Under the pieces are notes generated by a model that saw only the letters and a list, made by a program, of their open reading frames with translations, searched no databases and was not told the DNA's origin. 64,000 nucleotides of DNA from the NCBI RefSeq assembly GCF_000027125.1, contig NC_017626.1. The stretch is one strand, 5' to 3'. This stretch comes from Escherichia coli 042 (GTDB lineage: Bacteria > Pseudomonadota > Gammaproteobacteria > Enterobacterales > Enterobacteriaceae). The translations under genes and the position numbers were made by a program. How positions within the stretch are numbered: position 1 is the first letter of the stretch; every line of letters starts with the position of its first letter. This document shows positions 7,825-11,770 of this stretch, piece by piece.

Positions 7825-9258
7825 ATGAATAAAAAATCGTTATGGAAGCTAATTCTGATATTAGCGATCCCATGTATTATTGGCTTTATGCCAGCTCCGG
7901 CAGGATTAAGCGAACTGGCGTGGGTGCTTTTTGGTATTTACCTGGCGGCCATTGTGGGGCTGGTTATCAAGCCTTTCCCGGAACCTGTCGTACTGTTAAT
8001 TGCCGTTGCTGCCTCAATGGTGGTGGTCGGTAACTTATCCGACGGTGCGTTTAAGACCACCGCCGTATTAAGTGGTTACTCTTCAGGTACCACCTGGCTG
8101 GTGTTCTCGGCGTTTACCTTAAGCGCCGCATTTGTGACCACCGGCTTAGGTAAACGTATAGCCTATCTGCTGATTGGTAAAATCGGTAACACCACGCTGG
8201 GTCTGGGTTACGTTACGGTATTCCTCGATCTGGTACTGGCTCCGGCAACACCGTCTAACACCGCGCGTGCGGGCGGCATTGTGTTACCGATCATCAACAG
8301 CGTGGCGGTGGCTTTGGGGTCAGAACCGGAAAAAAGCCCGCGTCGTGTTGGACATTACCTGATGATGTCCATTTACATGGTCACCAAAACCACCAGCTAT
8401 ATGTTCTTTACCGCAATGGCGGGGAACATTCTGGCGCTGAAAATGATCAACGATATTCTGCACCTGCAAATTAGCTGGGGTGGATGGGCGCTGGCCGCCG
8501 GATTGCCGGGTATCATTATGCTGCTGGTCACCCCGCTGGTGATTTACACCATGTATCCGCCAGAAATTAAGAAGGTGGATAACAAAACCATCGCCAAAGC
8601 GGGCCTTGCCGAACTGGGACCGATGAAAATCCGCGAAAAAATGCTGCTCGGTGTCTTCGTGCTGGCGCTGCTGGGCTGGATTTTCAGTAAGTCACTGGGG
8701 GTTGATGAATCCACCGTGGCAATCGTTGTTATGGCGACTATGCTGCTGCTGGGTATCGTTACCTGGGAAGACGTGGTTAAAAATAAAGGCGGCTGGAATA
8801 CCTTAATCTGGTACGGCGGTATTATCGGCTTAAGCTCCTTATTATCGAAAGTTAAATTCTTCGAATGGTTAGCTGAAGTCTTTAAAAATAACCTGGCATT
8901 TGATGGTCACGGTAACGTTGCTTTCTTCGTTATTATTTTCCTCAGCATTATCGTGCGTTATTTCTTCGCTTCCGGTAGTGCCTATATCGTTGCCATGTTA
9001 CCGGTATTTGCCATGCTGGCGAACGTCTCCGGCGCACCGTTAATGTTAACCGCGCTGGCACTGTTGTTCTCCAACTCCTATGGCGGCATGGTTACTCACT
9101 ATGGCGGCGCGGCAGGTCCGGTCATCTTTGGCGTGGGTTATAACGATATTAAATCCTGGTGGTTGGTCGGTGCGGTACTGACGATATTAACCTTCCTGGT
9201 GCATATCACCCTTGGCGTGTGGTGGTGGAATATGCTGATCGGCTGGAACATGCTGTAA
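7825..9258 (+). CDS. ybhI: DASS-family anion transporter YbhI
   Basis: 477-aa polytopic membrane ORF; gene order ybhH-ybhI-ybhJ. Confidence 0.85.
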   Translation: MNKKSLWKLILILAIPCIIGFMPAPAGLSELAWVLFGIYLAAIVGLVIKPFPEPVVLLIAVAASMVVVGNLSDGAFKTTAVLSGYSSGTTWLVFSAFTLSAAFVTTGLGKRIAYLLIGKIGNTTLGLGYVTVFLDLVLAPATPSNTARAGGIVLPIINSVAVALGSEPEKSPRRVGHYLMMSIYMVTKTTSYMFFTAMAGNILALKMINDILHLQISWGGWALAAGLPGIIMLLVTPLVIYTMYPPEIKKVDNKTIAKAGLAELGPMKIREKMLLGVFVLALLGWIFSKSLGVDESTVAIVVMATMLLLGIVTWEDVVKNKGGWNTLIWYGGIIGLSSLLSKVKFFEWLAEVFKNNLAFDGHGNVAFFVIIFLSIIVRYFFASGSAYIVAMLPVFAMLANVSGAPLMLTALALLFSNSYGGMVTHYGGAAGPVIFGVGYNDIKSWWLVGAVLTILTFLVHITLGVWWWNMLIGWNML

Positions 9259-9387
9259 ATATACTCGTCATACTTCAAGTTGCATGTGCTGCGTCTGCGT
9301 TCGCTCACCCCAGTCACTTACTTATGTAAGCTCCTGGGGATTCACTCGATTGTCGCCTTCCTGCAACTCGAATTATTTAGAGTATAT
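9259..9387. repeat. ERIC (IRU) enterobacterial repetitive intergenic element
   Basis: ~129 bp with imperfect terminal inverted repeats and the recalled ERIC core GTAAGCTCCTGGGGATTCAC / AAGTGACTGGGGTGAGCG. Confidence 0.7.
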
Positions 9388-9440
9388 CCATTTATTATCT
9401 TTCTGCGCACTTCTCGGTGCGCAGATATCTGGAGCATTTG

Positions 9441-11702
9441 ATGATCAAGTTATCTGAAAAAGGCGTGTTTCTCGCCAGTAATAACGAAATAATTGCCGAA
9501 GAACATTTCACCGGCGAAATTAAAAAAGAAGAAGCAAAAAAAGGCACTATTGCCTGGTCTATTCTCTCTTCTCATAATACGTCCGGAAATATGGATAAAC
9601 TTAAAATTAAGTTTGATTCATTAGCCTCTCACGATATTACCTTTGTTGGTATTGTACAGACCGCTAAAGCGTCCGGTATGGAACGTTTCCCGCTGCCGTA
9701 TGTGCTGACCAACTGCCATAACTCACTTTGCGCCGTCGGCGGCACCATTAACGGTGATGACCATGTTTTTGGTTTATCGGCGGCTCAGCGTTATGGCGGT
9801 ATTTTTGTGCCTCCGCATATTGCGGTCATCCATCAATATATGCGTGAGATGATGGCAGGCGGCGGCAAAATGATCCTCGGGTCAGACAGCCACACCCGTT
9901 ACGGTGCATTAGGGACAATGGCAGTCGGTGAGGGCGGCGGCGAGTTGGTAAAACAGCTGCTTAATGACACCTGGGATATCGACTATCCGGGAGTTGTTGC
10001 GGTGCATCTGACCGGAAAACCAGCGCCGTATGTGGGGCCACAGGATGTGGCGCTGGCTATCATCGGTGCCGTGTTCAAAAACGGCTACGTCAAAAACAAA
10101 GTGATGGAATTCGTAGGTCCCGGTGTTGCTGCGCTCTCTACCGATTTCCGTAACAGCGTTGACGTTATGACCACGGAAACGACCTGTTTAAGTTCTGTCT
10201 GGCAAACCGATGAAGAAGTCCATAACTGGCTGGCGCTGCACGGTCGCGGCCAGGATTACTGCCAGCTTAACCCTCAACCGATGGCGTACTACGATGGCTG
10301 CATCAGCGTTGATTTAAGCGCCATCAAACCAATGATTGCGCTGCCGTTCCACCCGAGCAACGTGTATGAAATCGACATGCTGAACCAGAACCTGACCGAC
10401 ATTCTGCGTGAGATTGAAATTGAGTCCGAACGCGTGGCGCACGGTAAAGCCAAACTCTCGCTGCTGGATAAAGTGGAAAATGGTCGCCTGAAAGTGCAGC
10501 AGGGGATTATCGCGGGCTGTTCTGGCGGTAACTACGAAAACGTCATCGCGGCGGCGAATGCACTGCGCGGTCAATCCTGTGGCAATGACACCTTCTCGTT
10601 AGCGGTTTACCCGTCATCACAGCCGGTGTTTATGGATTTAGCCAAAAAAGGCGTGGTAGCAGATTTGATTGGCGCAGGCGCAATCATCAGAACCGCGTTC
10701 TGCGGCCCATGCTTTGGCGCGGGCGATACGCCAATCAACAACGGTTTGAGTATTCGCCACACCACGCGTAACTTCCCGAACCGCGAAGGCTCTAAGCCAG
10801 CCAATGGGCAGATGTCAGCGGTGGCGTTGATGGACGCTCGTTCTATCGCTGCGACTGCGGCAAACGGTGGCTATTTAACCTCTGCCAGCGAACTTGATTG
10901 CTGGGACAACGTACCGGAGTACGCCTTCGATGTAACTCCGTATAAAAACCGTGTTTATCAGGGCTTTGTGAAAGGGGCGACCCAGCAACCATTGATTTAC
11001 GGACCGAACATAAAAGACTGGCCAGAATTGGGGGCGCTAACTGACAATATCGTCCTCAAAGTGTGCTCGAAGATCCTCGACGAAGTGACCACCACCGACG
11101 AACTGATCCCTTCCGGTGAAACCTCTTCTTATCGTTCAAATCCGATTGGTCTGGCGGAGTTTACCCTGTCACGCCGCGATCCAGGTTATGTTGGCAGAAG
11201 TAAAGCGACTGCTGAGCTGGAAAATCAGCGTCTGGCGGGGAATGTCAGCGAGCTGACAGAGGTGTTTGCGCGCATTAAGCAGATTGCTGGTCAGGAGCAT
11301 ATTGATCCGCTGCAAACTGAAATTGGCAGCATGGTCTATGCGGTGAAACCAGGCGATGGTTCAGCGCGTGAGCAGGCGGCGAGCTGCCAGCGTGTGATTG
11401 GCGGTCTGGCGAATATTGCCGAGGAGTACGCGACTAAACGCTACCGTTCTAACGTCATCAACTGGGGGATGTTACCGCTGCAGATGGCGGAAGCACCAAC
11501 GTTTGAAGTGGGGGATTACATTTACATCCCTGGCATTAAAGCAGCGCTGGATAATCCGGGTACGACGTTTAAAGGTTATGTGATCCATGAAGATGCGCCG
11601 GTAACGGAAATTACGCTTTACATGGAAAGCCTGACGGCCGAAGAGCGCGAGATTATCAAGGCGGGTAGTTTGATTAACTTCAATAAAAACCGTCAGATGT
11701 AA
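9441..11702 (+). CDS. ybhJ: Aconitase-family protein YbhJ
   Basis: Track ORF trimmed to [11 protein letters not shown]; 753 aa, aconitase-like. Confidence 0.85.
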
Positions 11703-11727
11703 AAAAGGCGCTATGAAATATAGCGCC
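11701..11727 (-). terminator. Rho-independent terminator for ybhC
   Basis: On the minus strand, hairpin GGCGCTAT-atttc-ATAGCGCC followed by TTTTTT. Confidence 0.55.
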
Positions 11728-11739
11728 CTGTTTCATTAA

Positions 11740-11770
11740 CCCGATGGTTCAGACTATCGGGTTTTCTTTT
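11740..11770 (+). terminator. Rho-independent terminator for ybhJ
   Basis: CCCGAT-N10-ATCGGG hairpin followed by TTTTCTTTT. Confidence 0.6.

Follow-up and report, generated by a model that had tools for sequence, protein, structure and literature searches.

A full-length ERIC element between ybhI and ybhJ in Escherichia coli

The ERIC repeats of the Enterobacteriaceae, also known as IRU, were reportedly described by Sharples and Lloyd in 1990 and by Hulton, Higgins and Sharp in 1991. Two other kinds of bacterial repeat resemble them in their setting and in the effects ascribed to them. The REP/BIME sequences of E. coli are likewise intergenic, palindromic, co-transcribed and credited with effects on mRNA stability, but they consist of GC-rich units of ~35 bp, which are usually clustered and have an unrelated sequence. 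The Correia/NEMIS elements of Neisseria are, according to reviews, MITEs that share with ERIC the TA duplication, the long terminal inverted repeats (TIRs), co-transcription and processing by a ribonuclease, whereas their sequence is unrelated, their nuclease is RNase III instead of RNase E, and promoters or IHF sites occur in some of them. For ERIC itself, reviews state that Yersinia copies can affect mRNA stability, and present a model in which the effect depends on orientation and on RNase E: a cleavage site for this enzyme lies in the 3' TIR of the Yersinia ERIC, and its unmasking lowers the level of the upstream relative to the downstream transcript.

Here, we describe the repeat that separates ybhI from ybhJ in E. 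coli 042. All coordinates refer to a window of 64,000 nucleotides (64 kb) of contig NC_017626.1, which is the whole stretch of DNA that was analyzed, unless another record is named. The feature is a full-length copy of ERIC/IRU, a non-autonomous MITE of ~127 bp, and an ordinary member of its family (probability about 0.97). It is an element of an already known kind, which shows no departure from the family described in 1990–91: the likeness extends to everything that we tested, and nothing of substance sets it apart.

Identity and insertion site of the element

The gene ybhI (7825–9258, + strand) encodes a DASS-family anion permease of 477 amino acids, and ybhJ (from the ATG at 9441 to 11702, + strand) encodes an aconitase-family hydratase of 753 amino acids. 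Both names had been assigned in a preliminary description of this DNA, made from the letters alone, and both are those of the RefSeq annotation in matching E. coli genomes. The element is intergenic, lying between the stop codon of ybhI and the start codon of the co-oriented ybhJ. That it directly follows the ybhI stop, as the same description had it, is correct to within a base: the TAA occupies 9256–9258 and the unit starts at 9260, leaving one base between them. The canonical ERIC unit, TATACTC...GAGTATA, comprises 127 bp (9260–9386) and lies on the - strand in the conventional orientation of the consensus, as judged by the primer directions, while its + strand is the strand copied by transcription from ybhI. 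The imperfect palindrome of ~129 bp previously noticed at 9259–9387 consists of this unit and one flanking base per side; A9259 and T9387 are outside the unit and pair fortuitously.

The central conserved core (9302–9345, 44 bp) is formed by the abutting sites of the two standard ERIC-PCR primers, whose sequences and names agree with a published paper, and it holds an inner inverted repeat (9308–9321/9326–9339). Both primers match exactly, ERIC1R (ATGTAAGCTCCTGGGGATTCAC) at 9324–9345 on the + strand and ERIC2 (AAGTAAGTGACTGGGGTGAGCG) at 9302–9323 on the - strand, so the ERIC core named in the preliminary description is indeed there. Each primer has one match in the 64 kb when up to three mismatches are allowed, where none is expected by chance. 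No second ERIC was found within the 64-kb window, and therefore no ERIC-to-ERIC PCR product is possible from it. On either side of the core are the two TIRs. The left one (9260–9284) forms the outer hairpin stem, with compensatory changes in helices 1–3, and the right one (9362–9386) contains the AU-rich GAAUUAUUUAGAG in the + strand RNA.

For comparison with the family, we derived a consensus from 12 independent loci, namely the ERIC that separates cusC from cusF in E. coli B C2566 and eleven diverse copies from a plasmid collection, which together span six genera (Escherichia, Salmonella, Proteus, Serratia, Rahnella and a Klebsiella-type plasmid segment). This alignment, proposed beforehand as the check on the assignment, was far from poor: 120 of the 127 positions (94.5%) match, and all 7 differences fall in the less conserved internal segments. 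One substitution is private to the ybhI–ybhJ copy, which has A at 9349 where every other copy examined has C. One of the independent relatives, the cusC–cusF copy (record L009, 5002–5128), is 99.2% identical to the element in the window. It has the same orientation with respect to its upstream gene, starts 5–6 nt past the cusC stop codon and is likewise flanked by co-oriented genes of one cluster, but it occupies another locus, and at its right terminus TA has degenerated to TG. The plasmid collection as a whole yielded 307 records with ERIC-like matches of 73–99% identity, from Escherichia, Salmonella, Klebsiella, Proteus, Serratia, Rahnella and other genera. Among them, the IncN KPC plasmid pKPC-e3ee (L066, 401–525) carries an ERIC-like copy of 80% identity in a divergent ilvY–ilvC regulatory region; this is a chromosomal segment on a plasmid, and the copy takes up an unusual 5'-side position ~30 nt upstream of ilvC.

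Five further matches, on contigs classed as viral in IMG/VR (L003–L007), were set aside as independent copies, since all of them represent the same chromosomal locus. They carry ybhI, the ERIC and ybhJ, presumably as host flank included in prophage calls. We take the lambda attB site to lie just beyond ybhC, which would explain host flank near the lambda attachment site on these contigs.

The repeat is also dispersed within the species. Counted as places detectable by megablast, which makes the figures a lower bound, ERIC copies occur at 28,334 places in 5,425 E. coli genomes; the median genome has 5, and none has more than 11. Length, core, sequence similarity, TIRs and hairpin, TA termini with their duplication, and multiple copies are thus all those of ERIC/IRU. 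K-12 MG1655 has the same copy at 803322–803448 of NC_000913.3, and the K-12 reference annotation that was examined lists no repeat feature at this spot.

The insertion can be read directly from alleles that lack the element. A probe made of 28 bp of left flank and 28 bp of right flank was compared with 5,426 complete E. coli genomes and matched exactly one of them, that of GF4-3. The empty site is shorter than the filled one by exactly 125 bp, the length of the unit (127 bp) less one copy of TA: GF4-3 reads TAAATAT/CCCTTC, whereas the window reads TAAATAT(ACTC...GAGTATAT)CCATTT. The TA in question, inside ATAT, is found once in the empty sites of GF4-3 and of the Escherichia lineage SCPM-O-B-8794, and twice in the filled site, with the left copy at 9260–9261 and the right copy at 9385–9386. 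Insertion took place at the TA that lies one base past the stop codon of ybhI, and this TA was duplicated in the process. The comparison places the 127-bp unit at 9260–9386, and it agrees with a review table that characterizes ERIC as a MITE with 5'-TA-3' termini and a target-site duplication. The stop codon of ybhI is present in the ERIC-less alleles, and so the element does not supply it.

Hairpin, covariation and related RNA families

The outer arms of the palindrome (9259–9284 and 9362–9387, 26 nt each) are 81% complementary and the inner arms (9308–9321 and 9326–9339) 79%. As RNA, the + strand folds with -41.7 kcal/mol (z = -5.65) and the - strand with -50.5 kcal/mol (z = -7.76), and none of 200 shuffles did as well for either strand, in keeping with the palindrome noticed in the preliminary description. 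The better fold belongs to the - strand and not to the + strand that transcription from ybhI would yield. In a 15-sequence alignment, the consensus hairpin has 32 pairs with 94.5% of the cells paired, and 16 of the 32 pairs show compensatory changes. None of five hairpin measures was reached in 500 shuffles, and when the register was slid only 25–43% of the cells remained paired. The hairpin is supported by covariation.

Compensatory changes fit a symmetry of the DNA as well as the pairing of RNA, and an action at the DNA level, with the element serving as a cruciform, a protein-binding site or a recombination site in a manner comparable to REP/BIME, would also suit the observation that the boundary of a recombination patch in GF4-3 coincides exactly with the element (see below). 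Against this, a review gives no known protein-binding motif for ERIC beyond the TIRs, and 19 cells of the alignment hold G.U pairs that are tolerated on the + strand, a weak point in that the structure had been predicted on that same strand. For the same reason, we discarded the asymmetry between 19 G.U and 7 A.C cells as a test of the strand under selection, since it is biased. We consider a DNA-level role very improbable.

Searches of RNA families gave two matches of some note. The Rfam model V_AS5 (RF02818, Vibrio RNA AS5) aligned over its full length (model positions 1–129) with the - strand of the element, scoring 49.7 bits (E = 2e-9), and isrH (RF01391) aligned over model positions 151–218 of 280 only, with 17.5 bits (E = 0.034). 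Such matches are what a gene for a small or antisense RNA, like V_AS5 in Vibrio or isrH in Salmonella, would produce, but both scores fall far short of the gathering thresholds (96 and 45, respectively), the alignments cover the ERIC core and arms, and no promoter was predicted on either strand in a scan of the spacer region. Neither membership was therefore accepted, and a small-RNA gene is extremely improbable. The element has its core and arms in common with V_AS5, which is however a Vibrio-specific model, so that we regard the element as a homologous repeat rather than a family member; most simply, the two matches mean that these families were built on loci holding an ERIC-type repeat. A further match, to RAGATH-13 at 9756–9834 inside ybhJ, was at chance level (E = 0.77) and was dismissed.

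Spacer architecture and possible action on the ybhI–ybhJ transcript

Downstream of the element, the spacer continues with an AU-rich linker of 14 nt on the + strand (CCAUUUAUUAUCUU, 9388–9401), which in the centroid fold is predicted to be single-stranded between two hairpins. The second of these is a small, perfect inverted repeat with a stem of 10 bp (TCTGCGCAC-ttctcg-GTGCGCAGA, 9402–9425, + strand), which is followed after 6 nt by the Shine-Dalgarno sequence GGAG of ybhJ (9432–9435). The centroid fold consists of two independent domains, the ERIC hairpin and the 9402–9425 hairpin, and leaves both the linker and the Shine-Dalgarno sequence unpaired. The small hairpin is not part of ERIC and, because the ERIC-less alleles have it, it predates the element. 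Its stem is invariant in all Escherichia alleles while the loop reads TTCTCG, TTCACG, TTTACG or TTAACG, and hairpins stand at the same place in Citrobacter youngae (9 bp, of different sequence) and in Citrobacter sp. FP75 (7 bp, with a G.U pair). This repeat could be an RNA hairpin or the operator of a transcription factor.

Beyond ybhJ, the spacer to ybhC is polymorphic as well. It measures 68 bp in the window (11703–11770) and in GF4-3, where it has two terminator-like hairpins and no repeat, and 233 bp in K-12 (L002, 6766–6998), where it includes two REP/BIME-like units (GCCGGATAAGGCGTTTACGCCGCATCCGGCA). A presence/absence polymorphism of REP thus adjoins the fixed ERIC.

Within 9100–9560, neither a sigma-70 promoter nor an intrinsic terminator was predicted on the + strand, and the ancestral, ERIC-less spacer is only ~57 nt long, compared with 182 nt for the whole present spacer; for these reasons, ybhI and ybhJ are expected to be co-transcribed. 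One paper speaks against this expectation in that it groups ybhHI as a cluster and mentions ybhJ separately; ybhH is reported to be de-repressed when ybhD is deleted. Such a division would suit a hairpin that acts as a transcription terminator or attenuator parting ybhHI from ybhJ, as would the great stability of the + strand fold and the U-rich AUCCAUUUAUUAUCUUUCU behind it. However, the scan of the spacer found no + strand terminator, the stem has an AU-rich base, and the run of U's is broken and does not adjoin a GC-rich stem; a GC-rich stem directly followed by a U run is absent from 9100–9560 on the + strand, and the only terminator-like site in the scan is on the - strand, inside ybhJ. 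Moreover, the same element resides inside the cusCFBA cluster, between cusC and cusF. We therefore find termination at the element quite improbable.

An effect of the element on the decay of the ybhI–ybhJ transcript has, in our estimation, close to an even chance. It is proposed by analogy with the ERICs of Yersinia enterocolitica, which belong to the same repeat family and, according to reviews, share the configuration seen here, a position next to a stop codon combined with a 3' TIR rich in A and U; the difference is that the effect is reported from there, in another genus, whereas for ybhI–ybhJ it would hold by analogy. The general remark in the preliminary description that ERIC copies can affect the mRNA stability of flanking genes likewise goes back to the work in Yersinia. 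The mechanism that we envisage starts from co-transcription, through which the element would be carried within the mRNA as a long imperfect hairpin, followed by the AU-rich single-stranded linker and then by the older hairpin. Since the left arm begins one base past the stop codon, terminating ribosomes would open the base of the stem and thereby expose the AU-rich right arm with GAAUUAUUUAGAG. This stretch, which we take to fit the sequence preferences of RNase E, is a candidate entry site for the enzyme, and the opposite orientation of the element would offer a less AU-rich arm. The outcome would be a modest tuning of ybhH–ybhI relative to ybhJ mRNA levels, and no on/off switch.

In the study of Y. 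enterocolitica by De Gregorio et al. in 2005, the ERICs with an effect are said to overlap or adjoin stop codons, and a primary study in Yersinia is said to have found the ERIC effect abolished by chloramphenicol. Among the eight retrieved copies adjacent to a stop codon, six have the same orientation relative to the upstream gene, namely those after ybhI, cusC, narK, zapB, a Serratia regulator gene and a Rahnella ABC-transporter gene; this tally agrees with the model, but it comes from a sample chosen by similarity and is statistically non-significant.

Distribution, rate of change and meaning of the locus

Of the 5,426 complete E. coli genomes, 5,332 contain the element with both of its flanks. 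A match to the 3' end of ybhI exists in 5,352 and is missing from the remaining 74, E. coli B C2566 included, and in about 19 genomes part of this 3' end is retained but the element does not show with both flanks. The preliminary description had held that ERIC copies vary in presence between strains, and had suggested a comparison of this intergenic region across genomes. Such a comparison does reveal an empty site, in GF4-3, but it is the only one among ~5,350 E. coli genomes that keep the locus, and the expected variation does not apply to this copy. The ybhI–ybhJ ERIC is effectively fixed in E. coli, where it behaves as an old and immobile resident, and as such it is useless as a strain marker.

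Among the odd cases that were inspected, two keep the element. In FY10 (L060, 1–533), where the match came in two pieces, the element is intact and ybhI has lost 38 bp close to its 3' end; the resulting frameshift leads past the normal stop, so that the annotated ybhI is 488 amino acids long and ends inside the ERIC, an accidental fusion of gene and repeat. In RM14721, an IS1-associated deletion has removed ybhH together with most of ybhI, of which the last 55 bp remain, and both the ERIC and ybhJ are kept.

The one empty allele in E. coli appears to have come from elsewhere. GF4-3 is an ordinary E. coli that is ~2% divergent from K-12 at the locus, and at the three informative sites nearest to the gap (9219, 9390 and 9393) it has the alleles of SCPM-O-B-8794, while at the next ones outward (9198 and 9461) it is E. 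coli-like; the background of SCPM-like sites is 18 of 211. The spacer of GF4-3 equals that of SCPM-O-B-8794 up to one base just before the ybhJ ATG. Because the sites at the gap are SCPM-like and those outside it E. coli-like, the empty allele was most likely imported on a recombination patch of less than 265 bp, or else represents an old polymorphism, and it does not resemble a fresh excision. Elsewhere in GF4-3, six consecutive SCPM-like sites inside ybhJ (corresponding to 10535–10586) suggest another short patch from a divergent Escherichia lineage.

Outside the well-sampled E. coli genomes, we scanned relatives of YbhI in one genome per species, which returned 50 loci. E. whittamii, E. albertii and 'E. 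coli' E69, a lineage that is 5% divergent, carry the element at the same TA. The spacer is cleanly empty in SCPM-O-B-8794 (7% divergent), and there is no element in the seven Citrobacter loci with an adjacent ybhJ, in Intestinirhabdus or in Edwardsiella hoshinae. In Escherichia sp. MOD1-EC7003, the stop codon of ybhI is followed by TAA/TTATTTAAAAATAT/CC, which is similar to the right end of the element, GAA/TTATTTAGAGTATAT/CC, and this strain has the derived CCATTT flank of the element-bearing alleles, where ...TTC... is found in the empty allele and in Citrobacter. On account of the terminal likeness and the derived flank, its spacer probably holds a deletion remnant of 14 nt, a reading in which we have moderate confidence. 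The sequence after the ybhI stop of E. hoshinae, TAA/TTATTTGCGAGTAAT, also resembles the right terminus TTATTTAGAGTATAT, which may be coincidence. In the simplest history of these alleles, the element would have inserted once, early in Escherichia when Citrobacter had already branched off, and would have been lost occasionally thereafter; alternatively, filled alleles may have introgressed between Escherichia lineages. The E. albertii element is identical at 126 of 127 positions, while its flanking genes are 8.9% divergent, and the spacers of E. albertii and E69 are identical over 194 bp, the longest such run in the locus. Identical runs of 116–155 bp also exist inside ybhJ, so the 194-bp run is no clear outlier and does not decide for or against recent transfer between species as the explanation of the identity.

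Rates of change were compared by counting variable columns among five element-bearing lineages. The element has 5 variable columns among 127 (3.9%) and the spacer outside it 4 among 54 (7.4%), as against 14.3% for all coding positions, 37.2% for third codon positions, and 2.9% for first and second codon positions. It is thus about tenfold less variable than third codon positions (Fisher p = 1e-17) and about as constrained as the positions that determine amino acids. The non-ERIC spacer is conserved as well, which means that the constraint is not specific to the element. Three of the five variable columns are adjacent (9331–9333) and stem from E. whittamii (L026, 4436–4562), in which a change from GCTCC to GTGAC makes the central palindrome perfect (CCCCAGTCACTTAC ttat GTAAGTGACTGGGG). 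This triple change looks like a single event of hairpin-templated correction.

These observations bear on the main rival to the RNA-decay reading, namely that the repeat is a genuine ERIC but inert, a selfish relic that was fixed by drift or hitch-hiking in an ancestor of Escherichia and is kept uniform by properties of the palindrome itself, for example hairpin-templated correction, and not by selection for a function in the host; the terminator, the small-RNA gene and the DNA-level action are each unlikely. The E. whittamii change perfects the central palindrome just as templated correction would, and alleles without ERIC retain intact flanking genes, the downstream hairpin and the Shine-Dalgarno sequence. 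Indeed, the element is dispensable, since ybhI and ybhJ are intact in the ERIC-less GF4-3, SCPM-O-B-8794 and all Citrobacter loci. An inert relic is less easily reconciled with an element as invariant as first and second codon positions next to third positions that vary at 37%, or with pairing kept by compensatory changes across independent copies. Palindromes between direct repeats are generally deletion-prone, and yet one empty allele is all that ~5,350 E. coli genomes contain. On balance, we take the inert relic to be a serious possibility that falls well short of even odds.

The RNA-decay reading can be extended to the spacer as a whole, although we think this extension unlikely. The 182 nt would then be a domesticated RNA-processing module under purifying selection, made up of the ERIC hairpin at the stop codon, the AU-rich linker and the older hairpin before the ribosome-binding site of ybhJ, and would set the ratio of ybhI to ybhJ through translation-dependent cleavage by RNase E. 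The presence or absence of its element would be exchanged between Escherichia lineages by short-patch homologous recombination and not by transposition.

As a discovery, this ERIC copy is of small value, and the locus is useful mainly as a natural series of alleles. The effect of ERIC on the stability of flanking mRNA has so far been examined only in Yersinia, and the filled, empty and probable-remnant alleles described here, which come from closely related genomes and have a REP polymorphism nearby, would lend themselves to an isogenic comparison that asks if ERIC acts on mRNA stability in E. coli too.
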